Shown here in pieces: positions 2,546-39,212 of a DNA stretch of 40,849 nucleotides. The stretch covers positions 1 through 40,849 of the forward strand of contig DAOVGU010000202.1 in assembly GCA_030672255.1 (NCBI GenBank), given 5' to 3'. A program made the position numbers and the translations under genes. The DNA is from a bacterium (lineage in GTDB: Bacteria > Ratteibacteria > UBA8468). Each line of letters begins with the position of its first letter. Within the stretch, counting starts at the first letter, position 1. The notes under the pieces are model-generated. The model searched no databases and was not told where the DNA came from. It saw only the letters and a list, made by a program, of their open reading frames with translations.

Positions 2546-2995
2546 ATAGGGGGGCTCTGTCAAGCATTTGTAAAGTGGAATGATCAAATTCTTTTAAAAT
2601 TCTGACATAAGAGATATAAGAAAAAAAGATTTCTCCGAAAAGAAGATTATAGTAAGATTAACGGGTTCTTTTCTCTATTTCTTTGAGGGTTTGTTTGAGG
2701 AGTTTTTGGGTCTTGCCGTATTTAGCCCAGTCACCCTTCTTTAAGGATTCCACACCCGCCTGATAGTAGTTCAATGCCTGCCTGACCAATGCTGAAACCT
2801 GCTTGCCGGTAGGCAGGGTTGGCTCTTCTCTTTTGGGAGTTTCTGCTATCCTGAATGTCCCGGCCAGAAGAGAGGATAGGGTAGCATCCAGGCTTTCGCC
2901 TATTACAACCTCATTCGCCTGGCCAAGGATGATGCGCTTGAATTCGGGAAGTTCTCCCTGCTCGGCCTTGAGGTAAAGAGGCTCTGCGTAAAGAA
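2500..2995 (-). repeat. copy B of a ~0.5-0.6 kb segment (UPF0182 3' end + downstream spacer + start of integrase remnant)
   Basis: Aligns with 3912-4535. It shares identical runs such as agaggatagggtagcatccaggctttcgcc and ccaaggatgatgcgcttgaattcgggaagttctccctgctcggcctt, with diverged sequence between them. Confidence 0.85.
2658..2995 (-). pseudogene. orphan duplicated 3' fragment of the UPF0182 gene (last ~110 codons)
   Basis: YAEPLYLKAEQGELPEFKRIILGQ...VSALVRQALNYYQAGVESLKKGDWAKYG.TQKLL.QTL..IEKRT is near-identical to the C-terminus of the 933-aa protein. Sequence 5' of ~2995 is unrelated, so the listed 156-aa ORF is not a real gene. Confidence 0.85.
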
Positions 2996-3242: not shown

Positions 3243-3767
3243 TTATTTAGTAGAAGGCACTATTTTTTTCTGTATTTCATCAAGACTTTTAATAAACTTT
3301 TGTATGGTATCGCGCTCAAAGGAAATAATCCGCAAAATTTCTTGTTTATTAATATTGCCGTCATTGTAATCTTTTATTGATTTATTTATAAAAAGTTCCG
3401 TGCCTTGATTCATGTGTTCTAATATTGTAGCAATAAGATTAAGATCCTCTGTACTCAATTTTTCATAGAGAAACCCTTGATTAAAATAACTAAGAGTGAA
3501 TAAACGTTGGTAATTCACATATTTAGGGTAATAAAAAACTTTATCCTCAACGCCTATTTTTTCTATGGTTTTGGTTAAATCTTCGAGGGTTTTTTCTAAA
3601 TATTTTTTATTGAAATTAAATTCACATCTAAGATTTTTCTCAAGTAACTTCTTTGCTGCATCTTTAGTCCATTTATTTGTCAGATGAAAAAGCAGGATAG
3701 AAAAAATAAAGGCTAAGAATACTCCAATAAATGTAGGGAATGCTAATTGCCAGAATGTCATACTCAA
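3243..3767 (-). CDS. hypothetical N-terminally membrane-anchored protein (AT-rich cargo gene)
   Basis: One N-terminal TM (FWQLAFPTFIGVFLAFIFSILLFHL) is followed by a Lys/Glu-rich helical region. It has an AAGGAG RBS and its own terminator. It lies between the two UPF0182 3'-end copies. I recognise no family. Confidence 0.6.
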   Translation of the reverse strand: MSMTFWQLAFPTFIGVFLAFIFSILLFHLTNKWTKDAAKKLLEKNLRCEFNFNKKYLEKTLEDLTKTIEKIGVEDKVFYYPKYVNYQRLFTLSYFNQGFLYEKLSTEDLNLIATILEHMNQGTELFINKSIKDYNDGNINKQEILRIISFERDTIQKFIKSLDEIQKKIVPSTK

Positions 3768-3911: not shown

Positions 3912-4535
3912 TCTTTTTGACACCTCATCTTGCCTCATTATTCTGAATTGTGTCGATATTCTCCTTGGAAGTTGAGATGATATCCAGCATTGCTTTTCTT
4001 CGCTTGCGACACAATGGTGAGTAATTAAGCAAGAATAACAAGGATGTATCGCAATTTTAGTATTATAGGGGGGCTCTGTCAAGTATTTGTATTGTATCTA
4101 AAATTTCGACATAAGAAAAAAAGGGTTCTCCGAAAAGAAGGTTATGGGAGGATTAATGTGTTCTTTTCTCTATTGCTTGGAGGGTTTGTTGGAGGAGTTT
4201 TTGGGTCTCGCCATACTTAGCCCAGTCACCCTTTTTTAAGGATTCCACACCAGCCTGGTAGTAGTTTAGAGCCTGCCTGACTAAAGCGGATACAGATTCT
4301 CCCCCCTCCTCAATCCTCCCCCGCAAGTGGGGAGGAGAAGAAACATCCTCAATCTCCCCCCTCGAGGGAGGAGGTAGGTGGGGGTCTATCTTAAATGTCC
4401 CTGTTAGGAGAGAGGATAGGGTAGCATCCAGGCTTTCGCCCATGACAACTCTATTCCCCTGACCAAGGATGATGCGCTTGAATTCGGGAAGTTCTCCCTG
4501 CTCGGCCTTCAGATAAAGTGGCTCTGCGTAAAGAA
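3912..4535 (-). repeat. copy A of the duplicated segment (functional 3' end of the UPF0182 gene + spacer + short integrase-remnant piece)
   Basis: See copy B. Copy A also carries a 103-nt insertion (3950-4052, bounded by AATT/AATT) and the GC-rich palindromic element at 4297-4386. Confidence 0.85.
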
Positions 4536-6924
4536 TCGATTGCTCGATGGGGATGACAAGCAAATTACCGCGAATGACGGAGGAGCCTCTCTGACCCCAG
4601 AGGGTTAGCTGCTCAGAGATTGTTGGGTTCTGGTCGATACGCGCCTCAATCTGCATCGGACCATAGACCAGTTTGTCCTTGGGAAATTTGTAGAGCAGAA
4701 GGTTTCCGTAATTTTCTCCGTCACAGGCTGCGGCAAGCCAGGCAATCATATTGTTCTTTCCTGTTGGGGTAAATGGCAAAAGAAGAAAAAATTCCTCTTT
4801 TTCTTCTATTTTCAGAATCATATAATAGGGCTCCATTTGCTGTTCGGATGATGTATAAATTTCCCGGGGAATATCCCAGTAGTCCTCCTTGTTATAGAAT
4901 ACCTCAGGATTGCGCATATGGTATGTTCGATATATTTGCGCCTGAATTTTAAACAGTGTCTCCGGATAACGAATGTGTTTTTTTAAGTCTAATGGCATTT
5001 GCGCAAATGGTTTGAACAACGTCGGAAAAATCTTCTGGTAAACGTTGATTAAGGGATCTTCATTGTCCAGGAGATAAAAAGAAACATCTCCATGGTAAGC
5101 ATCAATAATAATCTTAACCGAATTGCGGATGTAGTTAAAACTTTTCTGGTAAGGAGTGGCGTAGGGATACATATTGCTTACCGTGTAAGCATCGAGAATC
5201 CAGAATAATTTTCCTTCCGACGAGATTACAAGATAAGGGTCCTGGTCGTAATGCAGGAAGGGAGCAATTTTTTGGCAACGCTCGCGGATATTACGATAGA
5301 GCATAATTCTGCTTTCAGGTGTAATATTCCGCGTCAAAAGCAGTTTAAAGTCAAGGTATTTCAGGGAAAGGAGAAGCTTTCTGAAAGTGGAGGAGATCGG
5401 TGTTCCTCCTTTACCTTCATAAAAGGTATAGATATTCTTATCCCCTTTGGGATAATCAAATTCCTTAGTCTTTGTCTTTACGATGCAGTAGTTGTCGGTT
5501 AACTCCCCGTAGTAGATTTCCGGTCTTTTTACCTTAAGATTAGATTCAGATACGGGAGGGATATCTTTAATCAGGAGGCTGGGAAATCCTTCTCTGGTAA
5601 CCTCCCCTACGGGAGAAAGAACAACTCCATAGCCATGCGTATACTTCATCCGCTCATTGATCCAGGTCCTGGCTTTTTGCGGAATCTTAGATTGATTCAG
5701 TTCTCTTGCCGAAAGAAATACCTGTCGGTACTCTCCATTAATTTCGTAGCGGTCGATATCTACATTGGGAAAATCATAGTAAAGACGCAATCCCTGAAGC
5801 TGGCGATATGTTGCCTTCAGAGGTCTTGGGTCCCAGAGCCTGATATTCTTGATGATTGCTTTGTTCCTTTTGACCTCTTCGATTGTAAGGCTTTCTTTCA
5901 AGGGAAATTTTCTCTCCTTAATTTTAGTTAACCCATAGGCGAGGGTTGTATATTTAATGTTATGCTCAATATAAGGGCTCTCCTTTAAAATCTCATTTGG
6001 CTCCACAACCATCTTTTGCAGGATTGTCGGATAGATGCTCTGAAGGATGAGGGAGACACCAATCAAGGCTCCGATGCCGTATAGGGCGGGCTTGATTGTG
6101 CGCTGCCAAAGAAATGTAAAGATTGAAACTGCGCAGAGGATAGAAAGCACGATAAGTGCCTTTAAACCAATTAATCGCGCATGAATATCGGCATAACCGG
6201 CACCAAAGACTACTCCCTGCGAGGAGAAAAGAAGCCCATAGATATTGAGCCGATATTGCCAGGCTTTCAGCAAAATAAAAACAGCGATTAAAGCGAGGAT
6301 ATGATTTTTTACATATTGCTCAACTCTCAAGCGATTAAAATCTATCCTGATGGCTCCCTTAAGCCCATAAAGAGCAAGAGTTAAAAGAGTAATAAAGAAG
6401 ATAGAACCGGAAAGCCAGTTCTGGATAAAGGAAAAGAAGGGAAGGGAGAAGAGATAAAAACCAATATCTTTCTGAAAAATGGGATCAGCAATTCCCACGT
6501 TCACCCGGTTGAAATAGGCAAGGACAATTTCCCAGCGCTTCATTTGAGAAATTCCCACAAGGAAAGCAATAAATAAGGAGCAGAGGAGTAGGAAACGAGG
6601 TTCCGTCAGAACTTTAAGTAGTTTTCCCAGCTGATACAGTTCGGGTGGAATCTGGAATCTCTCAGAGAAATCTTGCTCAGAACTTGGAGAAAGGCGGGCT
6701 GCTAAAAGAAGGTTAAGATAGAGAAGAAAAAAGAAAAGAAGAGAAAAGAGTAAAGCAATTTCAATTCTGGTGAAGAAAATCTTTGTAAATACAGGCAGGT
6801 AATTCAGAGTCTTAAACCAGATAAAATTTACATAAAAGTTTATTAGGGCTCTGTTTGTCACCAACCCTAACAATAGCAATCCTGCCAACACCCAACCAAC
6901 CTTTCTTTTTAGCATTGATTGCAT
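4153..6924 (-). CDS. UPF0182-family large membrane protein
   Basis: About 920 aa. The N-terminal third has multiple TM helices, followed by a large soluble domain and a conserved YAEPLYLKAE...LPE.KRII block near the C-terminus. The track start at 6954 is a TTG inside an intergenic hairpin; the ATGs at 6924 and 6915 (MQSMLKRK) are more likely. Confidence 0.8.
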   Translation of the reverse strand: MQSMLKRKVGWVLAGLLLLGLVTNRALINFYVNFIWFKTLNYLPVFTKIFFTRIEIALLFSLLFFFLLYLNLLLAARLSPSSEQDFSERFQIPPELYQLGKLLKVLTEPRFLLLCSLFIAFLVGISQMKRWEIVLAYFNRVNVGIADPIFQKDIGFYLFSLPFFSFIQNWLSGSIFFITLLTLALYGLKGAIRIDFNRLRVEQYVKNHILALIAVFILLKAWQYRLNIYGLLFSSQGVVFGAGYADIHARLIGLKALIVLSILCAVSIFTFLWQRTIKPALYGIGALIGVSLILQSIYPTILQKMVVEPNEILKESPYIEHNIKYTTLAYGLTKIKERKFPLKESLTIEEVKRNKAIIKNIRLWDPRPLKATYRQLQGLRLYYDFPNVDIDRYEINGEYRQVFLSARELNQSKIPQKARTWINERMKYTHGYGVVLSPVGEVTREGFPSLLIKDIPPVSESNLKVKRPEIYYGELTDNYCIVKTKTKEFDYPKGDKNIYTFYEGKGGTPISSTFRKLLLSLKYLDFKLLLTRNITPESRIMLYRNIRERCQKIAPFLHYDQDPYLVISSEGKLFWILDAYTVSNMYPYATPYQKSFNYIRNSVKIIIDAYHGDVSFYLLDNEDPLINVYQKIFPTLFKPFAQMPLDLKKHIRYPETLFKIQAQIYRTYHMRNPEVFYNKEDYWDIPREIYTSSEQQMEPYYMILKIEEKEEFFLLLPFTPTGKNNMIAWLAAACDGENYGNLLLYKFPKDKLVYGPMQIEARIDQNPTISEQLTLWGQRGSSVIRGNLLVIPIEQSILYAEPLYLKAEQGELPEFKRIILGQGNRVVMGESLDATLSSLLTGTFKIDPHLPPPSRGEIEDVSSPPHLRGRIEEGGESVSALVRQALNYYQAGVESLKKGDWAKYGETQKLLQQTLQAIEKRTH
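4297..4386 (-). repeat. GC-rich palindromic element, copy 1 (in frame inside the UPF0182 gene)
   Basis: Sense strand: cccccacctacctcctccctcgaggggggag...cctccccacttgcgggggagg. It encodes DPHLPPPSRGEIEDVSSPPHLRGRIEEGGES and replaces 16 unrelated residues present in pseudogene copy B. Confidence 0.8.
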
Positions 6925-6944
6925 AGGAATTTCAAAGCAAATCA

Positions 6945-7011
6945 GGCAAAGCAAGCTTTGCCACTACATAGACAAAATAAATATGTAGTTGCCGTCCCTG
7001 CGGAAGCAGGG
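6945..7011. repeat. three consecutive intergenic hairpins
   Basis: ggcaaagc-aa-gctttgcc, then actacata-N11-tatgtagt, then ccctgc-ggaa-gcaggg. The ctacat-type hairpin recurs at 39036-39055. Confidence 0.7.
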
Positions 7012-9228: not shown

Positions 9229-10770
9229 GTGGAAAGTCATAAAAATATCGCGAAAGCGGCCGGAATTATTGCTTTAGCCACCATTTGCTGCCGGATTGCA
9301 GGGTTGGGCCGAGAGGTAGTAACGGCAAACTTCTTCGGCACCGCTCTTGTCTATGATGCCTTCCTGATTGCCTTTATGATTCCTAACTTTTTCCGTCGGC
9401 TCTTTGCCGAAGGGGCACTTTCCACCGCCTTTATTCCGGTTTTTACCGGATATGTAACGACCGAAAAAAAAGAAGAGGCAGAAAAGGTAGCCTCTATCGG
9501 TTTTACCCTTTCTCTGGTGGCGACCTCATCCCTGGTAATTCTCTCAATTTTTGGAATTTTTATCTTCTCCCATTTTTTTCATTTCTCCTCCAAGGTTGCT
9601 CTGGTCTTAAACTTACTTAAAATTACTCTGCCTTATCTCATCCTGATTTCCTTAGCCGCGATTGCTATGGGAATCCTGAATTCCTATCAGCATTTTACCA
9701 CTCCCGCATTCGCTCCGATAATGCTTGATATCTGCTGGATCGGGGCTATCTTCCTTCTCTGCCCTTTATTTGGAGAAAGTATCGAGAGAAGAATCTTTGG
9801 ATTAGCAATTGGGGTGCTTATTGGAGGTTTAGGTCAATTCTGGATTCAGTTGCCAATGCTGAAAAAAAGGAAACTGAAAATTCGCTTTAACCTTAATTTC
9901 CGCCATCCGGCGATTAAGCGGATGGCAATTCTTCTTGCTCCCTCCGTTATTGGGGTTGCGGTGACCCCGATTAATATTTTAGTGGATGCTCTCTTAGCGA
10001 TAAGGCTTGGTTCGGGGATGGTTTCTTCTCTCTGGTATGCTAATAGATTAATGCAACTTCCTCTGGGTATCTTTGGGGTGGCAATGGCTACCGCAACTCT
10101 GCCAACATTATCCACTTACTTTGCTCAAGGAGAATTCAAAAAATTAAAGGAAACCTTATCCTTTGCTCTGCGCAATGTTCTCTTTGTCATCATCCCTTCC
10201 AGTATTGGTTTGATTTTGCTCAGAAGACCGATCATTTCCCTTCTCTTTCAGCGTGGGCTCTTTACGGCCACCTCAACCGAAAATACTGCCTTTGCTTTGC
10301 TCTTTTATTCTATTGGTCTTTTTGCCTATGCCGCCTCAATCATTGTGGTCAGGGGCTTCTACAGTATCCAGGATACTAAAACACCGGTGAAGGTGGGTCT
10401 TCTCTCTATTCTTGCCAATATTATCTTAGACCTTATTTTAATGGGACCCTTAAGGCAGGGTGGAATTGCCCTCTCTACCAGTTTTGTGGGCATTATCAAC
10501 TTTGTGGTTTTATCCTTTATTTTGGCAAAAAGGCTAAAAGGATTGGATGGCAGAAAAATTCTTTCCTCTTCTCTAACAACTCTCCTCGTCTCGGGATTAA
10601 TGGGGGTTCTGGTCTGGAACTCCTTACTCTTTTGTCAGGGGGCAAAAATTTTAATTTTGCGTAGTAGATTTGCTTTAGTATTTATTCCTGCTATAATAGG
10701 TATTGTATTTTATCTTCTTTTCTCCCATCTTTTGGGAAGGGAGGAGATGAGGTCATTGCGAACGAAGTGA
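9229..10770 (+). CDS. murJ: lipid II flippase MurJ (MviN family)
   Basis: The N-terminus IAKAAGIIALATICCRIAGLGREVVTANFFGT...DAFLIAFMIPNFFRRLFAEGALSTAFIPVF is typical of MurJ, with about 14 TM segments. It has a GTG start. The last codons (RSLRTK*) lie inside a repeat element. Confidence 0.9.
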   Translation: MESHKNIAKAAGIIALATICCRIAGLGREVVTANFFGTALVYDAFLIAFMIPNFFRRLFAEGALSTAFIPVFTGYVTTEKKEEAEKVASIGFTLSLVATSSLVILSIFGIFIFSHFFHFSSKVALVLNLLKITLPYLILISLAAIAMGILNSYQHFTTPAFAPIMLDICWIGAIFLLCPLFGESIERRIFGLAIGVLIGGLGQFWIQLPMLKKRKLKIRFNLNFRHPAIKRMAILLAPSVIGVAVTPINILVDALLAIRLGSGMVSSLWYANRLMQLPLGIFGVAMATATLPTLSTYFAQGEFKKLKETLSFALRNVLFVIIPSSIGLILLRRPIISLLFQRGLFTATSTENTAFALLFYSIGLFAYAASIIVVRGFYSIQDTKTPVKVGLLSILANIILDLILMGPLRQGGIALSTSFVGIINFVVLSFILAKRLKGLDGRKILSSSLTTLLVSGLMGVLVWNSLLFCQGAKILILRSRFALVFIPAIIGIVFYLLFSHLLGREEMRSLRTK

Positions 10771-10933
10771 AGCCGAAGTTGCGAGCGAGGTCCCTCGCTG
10801 GTCATTGCGAAGGACAAAGTCCTGAAGCAATCTCGCTCGGGATAAACTCCGCAAACTCATTGAGATTGCCACGTCGCTGACGCTCCTCGCAACGACTGCG
10901 TCGGATTGCCACGACCTTTGGTCTCGCAATGAC
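10752..10933. repeat. composite palindromic repeat of the gtcattgcga / tcgcaatgac family
   Basis: gtcattgcga occurs at 10752 and 10801, and its inverted partner tcgcaatgac at 10924. Internal pairs are gaagcaatctc/gagattgcc and attgccacg x2. The same family occurs at 37736-37817. Confidence 0.8.
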
Positions 10934-10953
10934 TTTGTCGGTTGGAGTAGAAA

Positions 10954-14828: not shown

Positions 14829-16181
14829 ATGAGTAAGCGACCAAATATTGTCTTGATTGTCCTGGACACCTTGAGAGCCCAGAATATGAGTTGTTATGGA
14901 TATCCCTGTAACACGACTCCCGCGATGGATGAATATGCTAATAAGGGAGTTCTTTTTAATTATGCCTTTGCGAATGTTATTCCCACCCAACCTTCACATA
15001 CTGCAATACTCACCGGCACCAACCCTAATACCAACAACATTGTCTCTCATTTTCTTCTGAAGGACTGTTTGGGAGGTTGGAGAGAAATAGCTCCAAAGCT
15101 GACATTGGGAGTGAAACTTGTTTCTCAGTTGATGCAGGAGAAGGGTTATATGACCTGTGCGGTGGATAACCTGACAATGATGCGATCGTATTTCCGGAGA
15201 GGCTATGATAACTATCTTTACTCAAGCCTGGCGGAGGGTGTGGACAAACTCATTCGCGTCACTGCGGACGAAATCAACGCTAAACTTTTTCCATTATTGG
15301 AGGAGATAAAAGATAAGACATTCTTTTTGTTTGTTCACTACTGGGATCCACACGGACCTTACGTCCCTCCCAAGGAGTTCCAGAAGTTTATGAAGAGTAA
15401 AAAAGAGAAAGAGAAAATGGAAAGAGAGATGGTGGTTAGAGGAGTAAATCTTTCCTGGCAGGATTTTGTTCCTTCCGAATCCCCGGGTGAGGATAAAGAG
15501 ACAATGAGCAAATATGATGGCGAGGTTGCCTATGTAGATGACCGCCTTAGGCAGGTCTTTACCAAACTATGTCAACTGGGGCTGGAAAAAGAGACAATTG
15601 TTATCATAACTGCGGACCATGGTGAAGAGTTCGGCACCCATAACGTTAGAGGACACGCTGGACTTCACGACCAGCAGATTCGTATCCCTTTGATTCTTTA
15701 TGGACCAGGCTGTTTGCCTTCAGGGAAGAAGATTGATAACTTTGCTTCACATATAGATATTGTACCTACTATTTTAGACTATGCGGGTATAGAATTTAAA
15801 GAAGATTATCCTTTAAGCGGTACCAGCCTCAAGCCAATTATTGAAGGGAAACGCGAGGAGGCTGATGATATTATCTACTCTGTAGAATGCACGCAGCAGA
15901 AGACGCGGGCAATTAGAACAAAGAAGTGGAAATTCATCAAAGCAGTTGGCGATGAACCTCGCTCGGACCAACTCCCACCCAAGGAACTTTATGATTTGGC
16001 AAATGATCCGTTGGAGGAGAGAAATCTCATTGATGCGGAAATAGATATAGCCAGAAAATTAGAGGCAAAGATGGATGAGAGGATTAAAAAGGAGTGTCAA
16101 AGAGCGGGCAGAAAAGAAGATATTGCCTTGATTACTCCCATAGGAACACAGGTATGGAAGTATAGGGACAGAGATCTTTAG
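14829..16181 (+). CDS. sulfatase-like alkaline-phosphatase-superfamily hydrolase with a non-canonical nucleophile motif
   Basis: PNIVLIVLDTLRAQ...TTPAMDEYANKGVLF...ITADHGEEFG fits the sulfatase fold. The position of C/S-x-P-x-R reads T-Q-P-S-H. It has a GAAGGAGG RBS. Confidence 0.8.
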   Translation: MSKRPNIVLIVLDTLRAQNMSCYGYPCNTTPAMDEYANKGVLFNYAFANVIPTQPSHTAILTGTNPNTNNIVSHFLLKDCLGGWREIAPKLTLGVKLVSQLMQEKGYMTCAVDNLTMMRSYFRRGYDNYLYSSLAEGVDKLIRVTADEINAKLFPLLEEIKDKTFFLFVHYWDPHGPYVPPKEFQKFMKSKKEKEKMEREMVVRGVNLSWQDFVPSESPGEDKETMSKYDGEVAYVDDRLRQVFTKLCQLGLEKETIVIITADHGEEFGTHNVRGHAGLHDQQIRIPLILYGPGCLPSGKKIDNFASHIDIVPTILDYAGIEFKEDYPLSGTSLKPIIEGKREEADDIIYSVECTQQKTRAIRTKKWKFIKAVGDEPRSDQLPPKELYDLANDPLEERNLIDAEIDIARKLEAKMDERIKKECQRAGRKEDIALITPIGTQVWKYRDRDL

Positions 16182-16453
16182 AATTGAGAAAATATCTGCA
16201 ATTTGGCTTAATTTTCTTCTGAGGTAAGGAAGGAGAAAATAGCCAGAGATGAAAAAATAGAGGGATTTATTCTTGGAATGTGTAGAGAAAATTTAGGCGG
16301 AATAAAAGTGTTCTCAGTGAGAGAGAGCGAAGAGAGTGAAAACATAGGTATTCACCTTGTCGGTAGGCCCAGTCTATTTTTACTGGAAAACTGTGGGGGC
16401 AAAGATTCCCCGTTTGCTTTGGGAAATGGGCAAAGAGCTCAAAAAGCAATAAG

Positions 16454-17581
16454 ATGATTGAAACTGCAGAACTGAAAAAGGGTGCTATAAATTTCTTGGA
16501 AGAAATGCGTATACCTAAAACATGGAATTTTAAATTTTGTTCTGAGAATAATCCTACTCTTATAGGTTCTTGTTTAGCCGCAATGTTGGGAAATTTTATC
16601 GGTTATTTTGATAAATTAACCAAAAGTGATAAGAAAAACTGGGCTAATTATATAAAAAGTTTTCAAAGGAAAGATGGTTGGTTTGAAGACGAAGACATAG
16701 CCGAAAAGAATCTTTCTCCGGGATACTTAAAAGATAGGGCTTTACTCCATAGAACCCGTCACGCATTATTTGCCCTCTATGCTTTAGAGGAAAGGCCTCT
16801 TTATAAATTTTATTTCTTAGAAAACTGGCTTGGTAAAGGGAAAATGAGAAAATGGTGCGAGACATTAAATTTATCAGATTATTGGTATAGCAGTAATGTG
16901 ATGATGGATATTGCCATTTTTCTGATGGATAATGGCTACTATAATAAAAATGAAAGATCTTGGCAGGCAGTGGAAGAACTTTTAAACTTTTGTGATGAAA
17001 ATGTAAACACTGAAACGGGTTTCCACGATAAAGGGATTAGTGAAATACGTAACGCAATGGCTGGCGCTATGCATCTATATCCAGTATATTTTTTAATGAA
17101 GCGACCGGTTAAAAAGATTAAAGAGACAATTCAAACTACTGTAAGTTTACAGCAGCCAGACGGTCTTTTTGGATATGAGTCAGGCAAAGGGGGAGAGGAT
17201 TGTCTGGATTATGATGCAGTTTTTATCTTAGCGAATTTATGCTTTACCAATAAAGAATTTGAAGCAGTGATTAAGGAATCTTTTCTGAGGTGCCTGAAAG
17301 GGATTATGGTTTGCAAAAATCCAGATGGCGGCTTTTCATGCCATCGAAGAAATGAAACATATTTTTTTGGCACAAAAACCACAGTAGTTCCCACAGGGAA
17401 AAGCAGTCTCTGGGCAACATATAGTCGTCTTTTAACCATTGCGATGATGATGAATATTCTTTATCCAGAAACCCGCTCAGAATGGAAAATGGGAGCAAAT
17501 TTGATGGAAATATGGGATGGAGGTACAGGAATTATGCAGAATTATCCACCATCACGATTAAGGAATGAAATGGGGGGATAA
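16454..17581 (+). CDS. hypothetical protein with prenyltransferase/terpene-cyclase-like alpha/alpha-toroid repeats
   Basis: It contains QQPDGLFGY, KNPDGGFSCH and RKDGWFED repeats of the Q-x-x-DG-x-F type. Confidence 0.35.
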   Translation: MIETAELKKGAINFLEEMRIPKTWNFKFCSENNPTLIGSCLAAMLGNFIGYFDKLTKSDKKNWANYIKSFQRKDGWFEDEDIAEKNLSPGYLKDRALLHRTRHALFALYALEERPLYKFYFLENWLGKGKMRKWCETLNLSDYWYSSNVMMDIAIFLMDNGYYNKNERSWQAVEELLNFCDENVNTETGFHDKGISEIRNAMAGAMHLYPVYFLMKRPVKKIKETIQTTVSLQQPDGLFGYESGKGGEDCLDYDAVFILANLCFTNKEFEAVIKESFLRCLKGIMVCKNPDGGFSCHRRNETYFFGTKTTVVPTGKSSLWATYSRLLTIAMMMNILYPETRSEWKMGANLMEIWDGGTGIMQNYPPSRLRNEMGG

Positions 17582-19286: not shown

Positions 19287-20828
19287 ATGAACGTTAAGGA
19301 GAAGCTAAAAAGTCTTCCTGATTCCCCTGGGGTTTATCTTCTCAGGGATAAGGGTCATAGAGTTATCTATATTGGCAAGAGCTTCTCTTTAAAAAAAAGG
19401 GTCGCCAGTTACTTTCAGAAGGGCTCTTTTGATCCAAAGATTGGCCAACTTATTCAGCATCTTGCCGACTTTGACTATATTCGCCTGACCTCAGAACCAG
19501 AGGCCCTTCTTCTGGAAGTCAGACTAATCAAACAATTTCAGCCAAAGTATAATCAGCTTGCTAAGGATGATAAGAGTTACCCTTTTTTAAAAATTACCAA
19601 GGAGAGATTTTCCTCCTTCACCATTGTTCGGGACCCAGGGAGATTTCGTAACCATCACCCTCCCCCTCACCCCTCCCATAAAGGGAGAGGAGGAGAGGAA
19701 AGTCTCTTTATCCCCTCCCCTCGAGGGAGGGGAATAGAGAGGAGGGGGGCATTTTACTTCGGTCCCTATACGGATGTTATCGGTTTGAGGCAAGCCTATC
19801 GCTATATCAGAAATATCTTTCCTGTCCGCCGCTGTAGGAAAAAGATTAATCCGGAGAAGAAACTACGGCCTTGCCTTGATTTTTGGCTTGGGAGATGCAA
19901 AGGACCCTGCGCCGGCAAGATCAAGGAGAAGGAGTACCAGAGATTGGTAGATTCACTTATTTCTTTTTTGAAAGGAAAATATAAAGAAACTATGCAACAA
20001 TTAAAGGAATTGATGAAAAGAGCAGCGGTAGAATTGAATTTTGAAGAGGCCGCAAAATACAGAAATCGGATTGAGGCGATTAGAAGGATGAAGCAGAGTG
20101 AGGTGCATCCCTGTAGGGGTTCGAGTTATCGAACCCGCGGGCTTGATAAATCAAGCCCCTACATTCACTTAAATGAGCTCAAAAAAGTTCTTTCCCTTCC
20201 AAGATTACCGCAGAGGATTGAGGCCATTGATATTTCCGACATCTCGGGAGACAAGGCGGTGGGCAGTCTCGTTTCCTTTAAAGATGGAAGGCCATATAAG
20301 GATGGCTACCGGAGATTTAAGATTAAAGGGGTTTCTAAGATTGATGACTATAAGATGATGGCCGAGGTGGTAGAGAGGCGATATAGAGAAAAGAAAAACC
20401 TTCCTGACCTTCTGCTTATTGATGGGGGAAAGGGACATCTTTCGGTGGTAATGCAGAGATTAAAAAATATGAAATTGCATTTCCCGGTAGCCGCTTTAGC
20501 CAAGAGGAGGGAGGCCATATTTTTGCCAGATTCTCCCTCTCCCCTTATCTTGAAGAAGAATACCTTCTCTCTTCGTCTTCTTCAGGAGATCCGGGATGAG
20601 GCGCACCGTTTTGCCATTTCTTACCATAAGCGGCTACGCCGAAGAGCGTTAAAGGAATCCGGTCTTGATGAGATAGAAGGAATTGGCGCGCAGAGAAAGA
20701 AGAGGCTCCTTTCCCATTTTGATTCACTTGCCGAGATTAAAAAGAGCAGTGTGGAGGAATTAAAGAGATTGGGGCTTTCCGAAAAGTTAAGCAAAAGAGT
20801 AATTGAATTTCTTGGCAAAGTAGGGTAA
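19287..20828 (+). CDS. uvrC: excinuclease ABC subunit C, atypically short and carrying two in-frame repeat insertions
   Basis: Recognised regions: the GIY-YIG N-domain (PGVYLLRD..VIYIGKS), FGPY...RRC...RPCLDFWLGRCKGPC, the UVR motif NFEEAAKYRNRIEAI, RIEAIDISD, PDLLLIDGGKGHL, IRDEAHRFAI, and the (HhH)2 motif LDEIEGIGAQRKKRLL. Confidence 0.85.
   Translation: MNVKEKLKSLPDSPGVYLLRDKGHRVIYIGKSFSLKKRVASYFQKGSFDPKIGQLIQHLADFDYIRLTSEPEALLLEVRLIKQFQPKYNQLAKDDKSYPFLKITKERFSSFTIVRDPGRFRNHHPPPHPSHKGRGGEESLFIPSPRGRGIERRGAFYFGPYTDVIGLRQAYRYIRNIFPVRRCRKKINPEKKLRPCLDFWLGRCKGPCAGKIKEKEYQRLVDSLISFLKGKYKETMQQLKELMKRAAVELNFEEAAKYRNRIEAIRRMKQSEVHPCRGSSYRTRGLDKSSPYIHLNELKKVLSLPRLPQRIEAIDISDISGDKAVGSLVSFKDGRPYKDGYRRFKIKGVSKIDDYKMMAEVVERRYREKKNLPDLLLIDGGKGHLSVVMQRLKNMKLHFPVAALAKRREAIFLPDSPSPLILKKNTFSLRLLQEIRDEAHRFAISYHKRLRRRALKESGLDEIEGIGAQRKKRLLSHFDSLAEIKKSSVEELKRLGLSEKLSKRVIEFLGKVG
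19655..19749 (+). repeat. GC-rich palindromic element, copy 2 (in frame inside uvrC)
   Basis: caccctccccctcacccctcccataaagggagagg...tcccctcccctcgagggaggggaatagagaggagggggg encodes HHPPPHPSHKGRGGEESLFIPSPRGRGIERRGA, between the GIY-YIG domain and the FGPY motif. Confidence 0.8.
20113..20162 (+). repeat. double-hairpin element in frame inside uvrC
   Basis: gtagg-[ggttcga-gtta-tcgaacc]-cgc-[gggcttga-taaa-tcaagccc]-ctac encodes CRGSSYRTRGLDKSSPY. The two-hairpins-plus-closing-stem layout is the same as at 39116-39167. Confidence 0.75.
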
Positions 20829-28394: not shown

Positions 28395-29416
28395 ATGGAA
28401 TATTTGCCAATGCAAAAAAATGTTCCAGTAGCAAAGAAAGTGGACGTTGTTGTTTGTGGCGGGGGGCCGGCAGGGTTAGCGGCGGCGATTGCCGCAGCAA
28501 GAAATGGGGCGCAAACTCTCCTGATAGAACAACTTAATTGTTTGGGGGGAATGGCCACTGCAGGCTTGGTCGGTCCTTTTGTGGCGACCGCCGGTGAAAA
28601 AGGGGGTATCTACAAAGAACTTCTTGAGCGGTTAGAAAAAAATAAGGGCGCGGAAGGTAGGGGTTTTGATGTAGAATCCCTTAAATATTTTGCTCAGATA
28701 ATCTGTGAAGAAACCGGAGTAAAATTCCTTCTGCATACTTTTGTCTGTGGCGTTGTAAGGGAGAAGTTACCCTTCCTGATTATGTTAACCATATCTGGGG
28801 CAGCAAGGGGAGTACCATCCGGAAGGGAGAGATATCCCTTAACCTTGATATGACTACCGGCATTGATGGAACAAGCCCTGAAGTATTAACGCAAGCCGAA
28901 GTTGAAGGAAGAAGATTGGTCTGGGAATGCATCAGATTCATTCGTAAATATGTTCCTGGGGCAGAAAATGCTTATCTTTCTAAAACCCCTTTTCTTTATG
29001 GAATCAGGGAGACCCGGATGATCTTAGGGGAATATCTTCTTACGGAAGATGATGTATTGAAAGCAAGGAAGTTTAAGGACGGAATTGCCAAAGACTCCTT
29101 TTTTATCGACATTCATGGTCCACACTTACAGGATAAAGAGTGGGTGAAATCCCATCGTGTTCCTGAAGGCGATTGGTATGAGATTCCCTACCATTGCCTT
29201 CTGCCCAAGGATATAGATAATTTGCTCACCGCGGGAAGGTGTATCTCTTCTGACCGGGAAGCCAACGGTTCTTTAAGAATTATGCCCACCTGTATGGCCA
29301 CGGGGCAAGCGGCCGGAACGGCAGGAGCAATGGCAATAAAGGGAAAGATAAAACCCAGAGAGATAAAAGGAGAAAAGCTTCGGGAAATCTTAATTTCTCA
29401 AGGAGCAGATTTATAA
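28395..29416 (+). pseudogene. FAD-dependent oxidoreductase (FAD_oxidored-type), frameshifted with an apparent internal deletion
   Basis: [37 protein letters not shown] is the dinucleotide fold. The frame breaks near 28770-28850. The C-terminal part (RCISSDREANGSLRIMPTCMATGQAAG) is in another frame. The parts total about 340 aa, and the central IDATGD-type region is not seen. Confidence 0.6.
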
Positions 29417-29428
29417 GCAAAAAAGTAA

Positions 29429-29505
29429 TCCCCCACCCTCCCCCTATAGGTGGGGAGGGCTCCCATCCGGTGGATGAGATGGAGGGAAAGAGGGAAGGGG
29501 GAAAA
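29429..29505 (+). repeat. GC-rich palindromic element, copy 3 (intergenic)
   Basis: cccccaccctccccctataggtggggagggctccc...ggagggaaagagggaagggggaaaag. Confidence 0.75.
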
Positions 29506-36657: not shown

Positions 36658-36658
36658 G

Positions 36659-36710
36659 CTCTCACCCTGCCCTCTCCCCAGGTGGGAGAGGAATATAGGT
36701 GAGGGGGAGG
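36659..36710 (+). repeat. GC-rich palindromic element, copy 4 (short form, intergenic; supplies the downstream SD)
   Basis: ctcaccctgccctctccccaggtgggagaggaatataggtgagggggagg. The GGGGGAGG at its 3' end lies 6-13 nt upstream of the ATG at 36716. Confidence 0.75.
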
Positions 36711-36715
36711 TTAAA

Positions 36716-37726
36716 ATGTCTACTCGACAAACGAAGGCGGTAGTTTTTCCTGAGGCAAATAAATTTGAGATGACCCAGTTGGAGCTGGAAAAACCCGGGC
36801 CGGGCGACATCGTCGTCAAAACTCTAATATCGGCGATATCGCCAGGGACGGAGAGATGGGTTCTGCGCGGCAAGCATATTGGCACACGGTTTCCTTGTGT
36901 TCCGGGATACCACCGCATTGGCATTGTTGAAGAAAGCGGAAAAGGAGTAAAAAACTTTCGGGTCGGTGATATTGTATATGGAAGCGGAAACCGCTGGCAA
37001 GGAGATATTGTTTCGATGTGGGGAGCGCATCTTGGCCTATCCGTGGGTAATTGGGCCGGCTATCGCTTCCTTGACTCTTCCTTGCCAAAACGGTTAGAGT
37101 TAGAAACAATGGCCTTTGCAATTTTAGCCGGGGTTGCCAACCGCGGGATACGTTTCTGCGATGTCAAAGCCGGGCAAAGGGTTTTGATCATCGGAGCCGG
37201 TTTTATTGGAATTTGTGCATCACAACTGGTTTCCCTTCGTGGTGCGCATCCTGTCCTGCTTGAAATTGACCCCGAGCATATCGCATTTGCAAAACAATTA
37301 ATCCAGAATGTGCTCAGTCCAAAGGATGAAAAACTAAAAGAGGCGCTCCAGGAACTGGCACCGAATGGATTTGATGTCCTTTATGATACAGTGGGAGATG
37401 CAGCCACGACAGACAGAATGGTCCAGCATATGCGAGGCCAGGGAACTCTTTTACTCCAGGCGCAGTATTTTGACAAAGAACGCTGCGCGCTCGACCTCGA
37501 CCAGATTAAGATCCGCGAACTGACGGTGAAAACAACCTGTGGGACTGATGACCAGGACTGGGCAGAGACAATAAATAACATCCGCAGTCGTCTCCTTAAA
37601 ATAGCTCCCTTGATTACGCACCGCTTTGAGGCGGCTAATGCGCTTAAAGGATACGAACTGCTTCATACCGGCAAGCCGTTCAATTTAGGGATTGTTTTTC
37701 GCTGGGACGAAAGAGTAAAGGATTGA
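36716..37726 (+). CDS. MDR-superfamily dehydrogenase lacking the classical zinc ligands
   Basis: ISPGTERWVL stands in place of C-G-S/T-D and GYHRIGIVEESG in place of GHE. The Rossmann motif is LIIGAGFIGI. The start is taken at MSTRQTKAVVF; the 5' extension in the ORF track runs through the repeat. Confidence 0.7.
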   Translation: MSTRQTKAVVFPEANKFEMTQLELEKPGPGDIVVKTLISAISPGTERWVLRGKHIGTRFPCVPGYHRIGIVEESGKGVKNFRVGDIVYGSGNRWQGDIVSMWGAHLGLSVGNWAGYRFLDSSLPKRLELETMAFAILAGVANRGIRFCDVKAGQRVLIIGAGFIGICASQLVSLRGAHPVLLEIDPEHIAFAKQLIQNVLSPKDEKLKEALQELAPNGFDVLYDTVGDAATTDRMVQHMRGQGTLLLQAQYFDKERCALDLDQIKIRELTVKTTCGTDDQDWAETINNIRSRLLKIAPLITHRFEAANALKGYELLHTGKPFNLGIVFRWDERVKD

Positions 37727-37735
37727 TGTAGAAAC

Positions 37736-37817
37736 GTCATTGCGAGGGGATGTAATCCCCGAAGCAATCTCAAAGAAGTAAGGGATTGCCGCGCTCCTTT
37801 CAGTCGCTCGCAATGAC
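37736..37817. repeat. palindromic repeat of the gtcattgcgag / ctcgcaatgac family
   Basis: gtcattgcgag-gggatgtaatcccc-gaagcaatctc...gggattgcc...ctcgcaatgac, same family as 10752-10933. Confidence 0.8.
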
Positions 37818-39013: not shown

Positions 39014-39212
39014 ATCAGCGAGGTTAAAAACCTCGCACTACATTACATAGTAGTGGTCGAGCTTGCTCGACATAAGCAGAGTAAACGTAAATACTCAGTG
39101 AACACCGTACCAAAAGGTAGTCGCAACCTTTAGGTTGCGCAGGCGCAGGATGAATCCTGCGGCTACCAGCCTACGTCTACTTGAAAATAACGGCTTTTAC
39201 TGAATATTTACG
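39014..39212. repeat. array of five perfect hairpins, including a 127-nt unit bounded by 14-nt inverted repeats
   Basis: Hairpins lie at 39018-39036, 39036-39055, 39056-39071, 39122-39139 and 39144-39161. The last two are closed by ggtag/ctacc (39116/39163). The inverted repeat is cgtaaatactcagt (39086) against actgaatatttacg (39199), with 1 mismatch. Confidence 0.75.

Follow-up and report, generated by a model that had tools for sequence, protein, structure and literature searches.

A new family of short palindromic repeats, probably selfish, inserted in frame in genes of an uncultivated bacterial lineage

The contig DAOVGU010000202.1, referred to here over its full 40,849 nt as the window (GC content of ~42%), contains four copies of a short, GC-rich palindromic element, two of which lie in frame within genes (those encoding a UPF0182 protein and the excision repair protein UvrC) and two of which lie between genes. 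These copies belong to a real and new family of an already known kind of selfish palindromic DNA. [quoted passage not shown] Judging from the closest relatives of its UPF0182 and UvrC proteins, the source organism is an Omnitrophota-like uncultivated bacterium. Among named relatives, the one nearest to the UPF0182 protein, at 90% identity, comes from a “Candidatus Omnitrophica” metagenome-assembled genome (MAG), and the UvrC relatives form a top tier at 64 to 75% identity, with a tier of Omnitrophica/Ratteibacteria sequences below it. The host is probably a free-living member of the Omnitrophota, related to the Planctomycetes-Verrucomicrobia-Chlamydiae (PVC) group. The lineage DNA examined for elements amounts to ~140 kb, in which elements were found at ~10 independent sites. 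An assembly artefact was ruled out, as homologous in-frame copies are present in independent ENA, JGI, NCBI, and Logan assemblies.

The four elements are the strongest C-run/G-run outliers of the window and hold nearly all of its extreme C-rich and G-rich 12-mers, along with nearly all of its perfect GC-rich hairpins whose 5' arm consists of pyrimidines. All window positions were scored with a covariance model (R1) whose seed consisted of seven anatomically unambiguous copies, of which six came from other contigs. Exactly four places matched, with E-values from 1e-21 to 7e-3, and the next match had an E-value of 0.68. The matches are copy 3 (29424-29501; 74.4 bits), which is itself a seed member, copy 1 (4301-4385; 36.6 bits, E-value of 2.9e-9), copy 2 (19658-19746; 22.0 bits, E-value of 1.4e-4), and copy 4 (36658-36710; 16.9 bits, E-value of 6.7e-3). 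An earlier reading of this DNA from its letters and reading frames (the sequence-only reading) had reported four elements and proposed a scan of this type; both the sequence and R1 place elements where it had put them, and no further window copy was found. Its view that they form a true repeat family is supported by the R1 matches and by homologous copies at other loci and in other assemblies. Also as it had described, CCCTCGAGGG is present in two of the copies (copies 1 and 2), and both genic copies preserve the reading frame, encoding DPHLPPPSRGEIEDVSSPPHLRGRIEEGGES and HHPPPHPSHKGRGGEESLFIPSPRGRGIERRG.

Alignments and folds resolve the elements into four parts: a head, a hairpin (P2), an optional 27-nt hairpin (P3; CTCCCRTCCRGTGGAYGGGATGGGGGG), and a G-rich tail paired with the head. 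The basic unit is ~40 nt long (38 to 42 nt) and consists of the head CACCCCCACC(C), three to four variable bases, and the P2 hairpin, CCCTCCCC-loop-GGGGAGGG, with a stem of 8 to 9 bp. A closing stem with one mismatch joins the head CACCCCCACC to the tail GG(A/T)GGGGGG, so that terminal inverted repeats are present. The elements occur in two forms. In copies 3 and 4, a partial inverted head closes a single unit, while copies 1 and 2 are inverted dimers, with two hairpins each, in which the heads point outward and the hairpins inward. A closing stem with inner hairpins is predicted for the fold of either strand.

The small extra hairpins (P3, at 27 nt, and P4) are gained and lost as whole blocks. 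P3 is an exact 27-nt presence/absence difference between the elements of two pairs of loci outside the window (L007 versus L008 and L002 versus L003), and it has also inserted into a Sir2-like gene of locus L021, behind a native GGGGAGGGCTC. Its position is constant, right after one fixed motif, and one of its base pairs shows a compensatory change from G-C to A-U. Within the window, the fold and R1 divide copy 3 on the plus strand into a head (29429-29438), P2 (29436-29459), P3 (29460-29486), and a tail (29487-29501), and the P3 cassette is CTCCCATCCGGTGGATGAGATGGAGGG, directly 3' of GGGGAGGG. When nine copies are aligned under the guidance of the model, 85% of the cells are paired, compared with 54 to 69% when the partners are slid, and double changes occur at nine pairs; this is a generous measure, since the alignment had been fitted to that model and orthologous copies from a single uvrC site (site 1, below) make up four of the nine rows. 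The structure was specified by hand and followed by model-based realignment; RNAalifold applied to a mixed MAFFT alignment had the arms out of register.

Copy 1 (4297-4386, no strand assigned) is an inverted dimer that keeps the frame of the UPF0182 gene and contributes ~31 residues to the C-terminal linker of the protein. The gene spans 4153-6954 on the minus strand and matches Pfam PF03699 over residues 22 to 786 (E-value of 2.6e-298); the insert, at approximately residues 857 to 887, is therefore outside the domain, which ends at residue 786. An orphan copy of the 3' end of this gene (2613-2995) is 87 to 89% identical to 4108-4535 and, with 47 nt in place of the 92 nt of the gene, is 15 codons shorter there. 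These 47 nt (AETPKREEPTLPTGKQ; 2799-2845, minus strand), delimited by repeat and DNA alignment, correspond to a linker, AETP(R/K)(K/R)EEPTLPTG(R/K)Q, that is common to the orphan and to the 90%-identical orthologue (P0121). Because of this shared linker, the orphan retains the pre-element state of the site. The sequence-only reading was thus right that the orphan lacks the element, but the 16 residues that it called unrelated are the ancestral linker shared with P0121. It also held that the element was acquired at this site; acquisition specific to the lineage agrees with the alignments, whereas simple insertion does not, since the 47-nt linker was replaced by 92 nt. A UPF0182 orthologue at 84% identity (L027) has a one-hairpin version of the element.

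The duplicated segment includes DNA downstream of the UPF0182 gene (2501-2995 versus 3913-4535, 87 to 95% identity). Its divergence and its mosaic similarity to orthologues suggest that the duplicated end may have arisen by recombination with a foreign allele rather than by recent tandem duplication. An open reading frame (ORF) at 3243-3767, in the ~0.9-kb spacer between the duplicated ends, has no Pfam match.

Copy 2 (19655-19749, no strand assigned) is a two-hairpin, dimer-like element lying in frame in uvrC (19287-20828, plus strand; identified by homologue search and alignment). It occupies a position referred to here as site 1, between the strand FTIVR and FYFGPYT, where the window has 33 codons more than empty orthologues, between FTIVRDPGRFRN and AFYFGPYT; one peptide across an insert junction contains FRNHHPPPHPSHK. 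A 19-codon version of the window variant is found in two relatives (P0002 and P0004), another variant in L002, L026, and L025, and a 10-codon version in L003; L001 is also filled. The site is empty in P0003, P0005, P0006, P0008, and P0009 and in all distant UvrCs. At a second site (site 2), the linker following the UVR domain, the same family is present in L007 (27 codons), L008 (18 codons), and L009, and no element is present in L002 and L003. A neighbor-joining tree of the UvrC core has filled and empty states interspersed in each of its two subclades, so both sites have been hit or cleared repeatedly. The sequence-only reading had proposed that the coding segments are lineage-specific insertions and that they might map to loops. 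Orthologue alignment agrees with the former, as close UPF0182 and UvrC orthologues without the inserts exist, and the AlphaFold model of the window UvrC agrees with the latter: residues 119 to 147, which correspond to copy 2, form a disordered loop with a predicted local distance difference test (pLDDT) score of <50 and no secondary structure.

The same uvrC gene contains a different palindromic insert. A textbook GTAG-tagged REP inverted dimer (TGTAGGGGTTCGAGTTATCGAACCCGCGGGCTTGATAAATCAAGCCCCTACA; 20113-20163), unrelated to copy 2, lies in frame in the linker, where it encodes ...CRGSSYRTRGLDKSSPYI... and occupies site 2, the position of the C/G element in L007, L008, and L009. This dimer is also found in L005 and is absent from L002 and L003. 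The residues concerned (274 to 290) likewise have a pLDDT score of <50 and are unstructured. REP-type elements therefore do colonize this lineage.

The known genic hosts of the family are UvrC (two sites), UPF0182, LipA, a GT1 glycosyltransferase, and the Sir2-like gene, and the net changes at in-frame sites are +15, +33, +19, +10, +27, +18, and +10 codons. In L007, lipA (lipoyl synthase) reads GVKK[VPPSPTPPVKGGVLS]VDNTEP versus GVKK[GESLP]VDNTEP. The copy in the GT1 glycosyltransferase gene of L045 (90.6 bits) is ~90% identical over 79 nt to the uvrC copy of L007, and copy 3, the L007 copy at uvrC site 2, and the L045 copy are near-identical (74 to 91 bits), from unrelated loci and independent assemblies. 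The Sir2-like gene of L021, which carries P3, looks decayed. It is split, with an internal deletion (L021 3892-4553), and two other element-bearing genes also look damaged: lipA in L007 (L007 1-738) has a frameshift near its 3' end, and the UPF0182 gene in L027 (~2730-2760) has a 2-nt insertion immediately after the element. As far as the sequences tell, this damage may be either true decay or hairpin assembly errors.

Four to five of the six frames are open in the elements of L002, L007, L008, and L001, and one element sequence is read in at least two frames, as ...PSKWGGLPSGGRDGG... in L002 and ...PQVGRAAIQWMGWGERG... in L007. A peptide census in which all six frames of two variants were compared with 5.8 billion proteins returned only the two known UvrCs and the GT1 host, in sense frames. 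A metagenome scan with a P3-specific pattern yielded only two additional contigs, both of them uvrC site 1 orthologues. The peptides added by the elements probably have no function of their own.

The remaining two window copies are intergenic. Copy 3 (29424-29501, plus strand) is a single unit with a closing stem in a 100-nt spacer between a flavin adenine dinucleotide (FAD) oxidoreductase fragment and a gene of no assigned function. Copy 4 (36658-36710, no strand assigned) is likewise a single unit, but a short one, and takes up the 58-nt spacer separating two zinc-dependent alcohol dehydrogenase paralogues (assigned with Pfam). The G-rich 3' end of copy 4 provides a GGAGG, unpaired in the predicted fold, 6 nt ahead of the ATG at 36716. 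At 28395-29416, just upstream of copy 3, the FAD-dependent oxidoreductase gene (PF12831) is split into two overlapping ORFs and is missing profile positions ~118 to 240; going by these lesions, it is probably a pseudogene.

Both the unit and P3 also occur outside this lineage. A 23-nt pattern over the P2-P3 junction matched one relative MAG and 14 places in one Dehalococcoidia MAG with a GC content of 62%, where the P3 hairpin retains its 5' context, lies inside the loop of another hairpin (GGGG...CCCC), and is found in 11 of ~27 copies of an unrelated ~200-nt composite repeat. This multi-hairpin repeat is present in >25 copies in 112 kb of the MAG (JACVQK01; L010 to L024), and its variants differ by entire hairpin modules, one of which is the P3 of the window family. 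Searches of the Dehalococcoidia loci against Rfam returned rRNA and tRNA only, and viral scans for P3 gave no match. A pattern comprising the head and the P2 5' arm matched 36 IMG/VR stretches (GC content of 44 to 74%), and the complementary arm, which the pattern did not demand, lies at most 22 nt downstream in 23 of 43 IMG/VR matches. A looser P2 pattern was discarded after it picked an unrelated giant-virus repeat in the viral scan. That repeat, GGAAAAGGTAAGGAATTAGAATTCCCCGAAGGGTGGGGAGGGGGCAAGGGG followed by a GGAACC...GGTTCC hairpin, recurs in AT-rich contigs of IMG/VR giant-virus MAGs (L031 to L044).

A second covariance model (R2), built from nine foreign units taken only from GC-rich IMG/VR contigs, was applied to the ~140 kb from the lineage. 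The lineage copies are recovered at 17 to 36 bits, and almost every match sits on an element (36.3 bits for L008, 30.7 for L045, 29.4 for L007, 26.5 for L001, 23.2 for copy 1, and 20.7 for copy 2), although generic C/G hairpins score 12 to 20 bits in GC-rich, repeat-rich DNA, so that copies 3 and 4 are unassignable by R2 alone. A clear inverted dimer in the Dehalococcoidia MAG (L010 5877-5961) scores 47.8 and 46.6 bits.

The unit is thus spread over the Omnitrophota-like lineage, the Dehalococcoidia MAG, and many GC-rich prophage-like contigs, and P3 (22 to 27 nt) is nested in unrelated repeats from two phyla and, in one case, in a native gene sequence that has the same motif. REPs have been split into GTAG-tagged and CGTC-tagged superfamilies (Di Nocera et al. 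2013; PMC3733652). We put forward, as a tentative proposal that is more doubtful than not, that CACCCCCACC(C)-N3-4-CCCTCCCC-loop-GGGGAGGG defines a third, cross-phylum REP-like superfamily and, jointly with this, that P3 (CTCCCRTCCRGTGGAYGGGA...) is a self-inserting cassette, which may target the position directly 3' of GGGG(AGGG). If this is true, the spread of the superfamily would imply conserved recognition machinery, and P3 would rank among the smallest known mobile units. Most worth pursuing are the 27-nt P3 and the unit shared across phyla; should they hold up, they would point to an undescribed hairpin-recognizing mobilization system that could be found via the genes flanked by units.

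Strand polarity bears on how the elements should be interpreted. The sequence-only reading placed all four copies in the same orientation relative to transcription, a claim that was not confirmed by model polarity calls, which conflict for copies 1, 2, and 4. The order of a C-rich 5' end and a G-rich 3' end carries no polarity, because the reverse complement of a palindrome keeps that order. R1 scores copy 1 at 36.6 bits on the plus strand, antisense to the UPF0182 gene, versus 18.5 bits on the minus strand and copy 2 at 22.0 bits on the minus strand versus 19.1 bits on the plus strand, while R2 calls copy 2 as plus (19654-19693, 20.7 bits). The R1 match to copy 4 (16.9 bits) is on the plus strand. 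R2 finds one unit on each strand in copy 1 (plus at 4299-4338, 23.2 bits, versus minus at 4352-4388, 13.8 bits), favors the minus strand in copy 4 (18.9 versus 12.7 bits), and favors the plus strand in copy 3 (17.6 versus 15.0 bits). In pairwise alignments, copy 1 fits several relatives better in the opposite orientation, and its termini match the “sense” reading of L009 and L027; an inverted dimer would be expected to produce such a mixed signal. The best reading of copies 1 and 2 is as inverted dimers without net polarity, and polarity is firm only in the copies that bear P3.

If the elements are selfish repeats, as we think likely, copies would spread to new sites at the DNA level. Because the sequence is nearly stop-free in most of the six frames, insertions in genes would survive if their net length is a multiple of three and they fall within disordered loops or linkers; other copies would persist in short operon spacers. 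The mechanism of spread is something that we infer, and our best guess for the mobilizing enzyme is a hairpin-recognizing single-strand transposase (HUH/Y1, resembling the REP-associated tyrosine transposase [RAYT]) rather than a DDE transposase, because of the missing target-site duplication, the hairpin modules, the fixed position of P3, and the GTAG-REP dimer in the same uvrC gene. The state of UvrC site 2 fits a duplication of TA (up to GGTA), with GAGGTA|AGTCAAC when empty and AAGGTA[CACCCCC...GGGGGGTA]AGTCAAC when filled.

Several observations weigh against this interpretation. No consistent target-site duplication was found, the flanks of the 13 other copies showing none. Host sequence (12 to 47 nt) is replaced, not just interrupted, at UPF0182, at UvrC site 1, and in lipA, which plain transposition does not predict. 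Transposase genes are absent beside every copy in the window and the lineage loci, none of the 62 small ORFs beside units in the IMG/VR and Dehalococcoidia loci matches a Y1 transposase, and the examined loci contain no insertion sequence; an ORF between two units in L072 resembles, by sequence alone, a phage structural-cluster protein and not a transposase. Finally, the P3-bearing copies are in the sense orientation at all five independent sites (copy 3, uvrC sites 1 and 2, the Sir2-like gene, and the GT1 gene), where an element blind to orientation would show no trend. This trend is suggestive but weak and not significant (two-sided P value of about 0.06), and the antisense frames of the P3 copies are equally open and were covered by the peptide census.

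Part of this evidence would be accounted for if the cassettes were spread and remodeled by recombination or templated repair between copies, by way of gene conversion, hairpin template switching, or microhomology-mediated copying, with new sites arising at short G-runs or C-runs and no dedicated transposase taking part. The replacement of ancestral sequence at the three sites, the absence of target-site duplication, and the failure to find a transposase all fit such a process. So do the inversion of the P2 loop of copy 1 relative to the termini of that copy and the way in which modules come and go as blocks between short G-runs, P3 following GGGGAGGG in three contexts that include the native GGGGAGGGCTC. 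It accounts poorly, however, for the full-length copies that are ~90% identical over 79 nt in L007 uvrC and the L045 glycosyltransferase gene without flanking homology, and the 11-nt head, conserved outside the hairpin across phyla, resembles a recognition signal rather than a by-product of repair. We therefore regard this explanation as unlikely.

A role at the RNA level, which the sequence-only reading had raised on the strength of a shared orientation, would have the elements act as structured mRNA segments that stabilize transcripts, pause ribosomes, or tune downstream translation and that are kept in one orientation. The intergenic copies do lie between codirectional genes, right after a stop and before a start, and the tail of copy 4 supplies a GGAGG ahead of the next ATG; the uniform sense orientation of the P3 copies and reports that REPs elsewhere act as RNA hairpins (PMC3733652) point the same way. 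However, mismatches of the G·U and C·A types are similarly frequent in the stems, and the sense and antisense strands have similar folding energies, with the antisense as good or better for copies 2 to 4. Searches of the elements against Rfam gave no match at the gathering score and none at an E-value of ≤1, the elements lack a terminator-like tail, and predicted terminators and promoters do not overlap intergenic copies 3 and 4. Moreover, the polarity calls conflict as described above, half of the copies are within coding sequence at unrelated positions, and presence/absence in close relatives marks the elements as dispensable, all of which makes an RNA-level role very unlikely. It is scarcely tenable that the segments are nonmobile, disordered P/G/R-rich linkers shaped in situ by selection on the protein and palindromic only incidentally. 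The inserts do lie in loops and linkers that are already variable in length among orthologues, but the same nucleotides are found in at least two reading frames and also in noncoding spacers (copies 3 and 4). It follows that conservation is at the DNA level across unrelated proteins, and this frame-independent conservation of nucleotides effectively refutes the protein-level alternative.

The window contains further features beside the four copies. A third palindromic family (GTCATTGCGA...GAAGCAATC and GATTGC...TCGCAATGAC) is represented by at least five units in the intergenic regions at 10752-10935 and 37736-37817. Downstream of an M24 peptidase gene, at 39018-39161, tandem GC hairpins (GCGAGGTTAAAAACCTCGC, GTCGAGCTTGCTCGAC, CGCAACCTTTAGGTTGCG, and CGCAGGATGAATCCTGCG) were found that have no Rfam match. 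At the left end (124-1838), an ORF for a ThsB-like TIR-domain protein (Thoeris) and a truncated N6/N4 DNA methylase gene may be the remnant of a defense island. The region at 14829-17581 was considered as dnaA/dnaN, marking a replication origin that would explain orientation, and was rejected; it actually encodes a sulfatase and a prenyltransferase-like protein.

With these elements, an uncultivated lineage joins the short list of those in which palindromic selfish DNA is routinely found in frame in housekeeping genes, and the in-frame copies of this lineage indicate that the decoration of proteins by such repeats is not a peculiarity of Rickettsia. Such inserts can inflate or distort protein alignments and yield spurious P/G/R-rich “hypothetical proteins.” They also mark permissive loops in UvrC, LipA, and UPF0182.

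Searches of the literature found no paper that describes the CACCCCCACC unit or the P3 hairpin, and a search by sequence string returned no bacterial paper; absence from the searchable literature is not proof of novelty. Among described systems, the sequence-only reading had pointed to the Rickettsia palindromic elements (RPEs) and called them rare outside that lineage. The likeness stands, but the rarity was overstated, as intragenic REPs are known from several species, above all from Opitutus terrae, a member of the PVC superphylum, and R. conorii (PMC3733652). The in-frame RPEs of Rickettsia (RPE-1 to RPE-10; Ogata et al. 2000, 2002) are summarized in a review of MITEs (PMC10969869). Like RPEs, the elements described here are palindromes that lie in frame in unrelated housekeeping genes at positions compatible with the protein fold, occur both within and between genes, and fall into several families. 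They differ in being 50 to 95 nt long rather than ~100 to 150 bp, in being GC-rich within an AT-rich genome, in belonging to a different phylum, and in having a unit shared with distant phyla; the distinction from RPE-1 to RPE-10 was drawn from descriptions of those families. Furthermore, the window family encodes no conserved peptide, because the frame in which the element is read varies from gene to gene.

The resemblance to MITEs (Correia, ERIC, BOX/RUP, Nezha, and others) lies in small size, nonautonomy, imperfect terminal inverted repeats, polymorphism between relatives, and occasional in-frame fusion with ORFs. However, the window elements are much shorter, consist of hairpin modules rather than a deleted transposon, and have no reproducible target-site duplication or known related insertion sequence. 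REPs and REPINs share with them a ~40-nt unit with a GC-rich stem-loop of 8 to 9 bp and a conserved 5' extension, the occurrence of singles and inverted dimers, intergenic copies between codirectional genes, the lack of target-site duplication, and the presence of several families per genome. Two inverted units with a short spacer, as in a REPIN, are seen in copy 1 and in the L010 dimer, and copy 2 scores about equally on both strands. Many REP hosts encode excinuclease ABC, UvrD, RecBCD, or polymerases (uvrA, uvrB, and recB are named), and REP dimers encode 20 to 30 residues (PMC3733652); in-frame genic copies of the window family add 10 to 33 residues, and their hosts include excision repair, here through uvrC. 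In contrast to REPs, the flanks of 14 copies have no GTAG or CGTC beside the stem, the sole GTAG, in copy 1, being on the wrong side of it, and the extension is instead the 11-mer CACCCCCACC(C). The arms are strictly C-rich and then G-rich, hairpins of the P3 type are nested as cassettes, and no RAYT gene was seen in the window, in the lineage loci, or among the 62 ORFs beside foreign units. The family thus works like REPs and REPINs or like RPEs, yet it can be filed as a member of neither.

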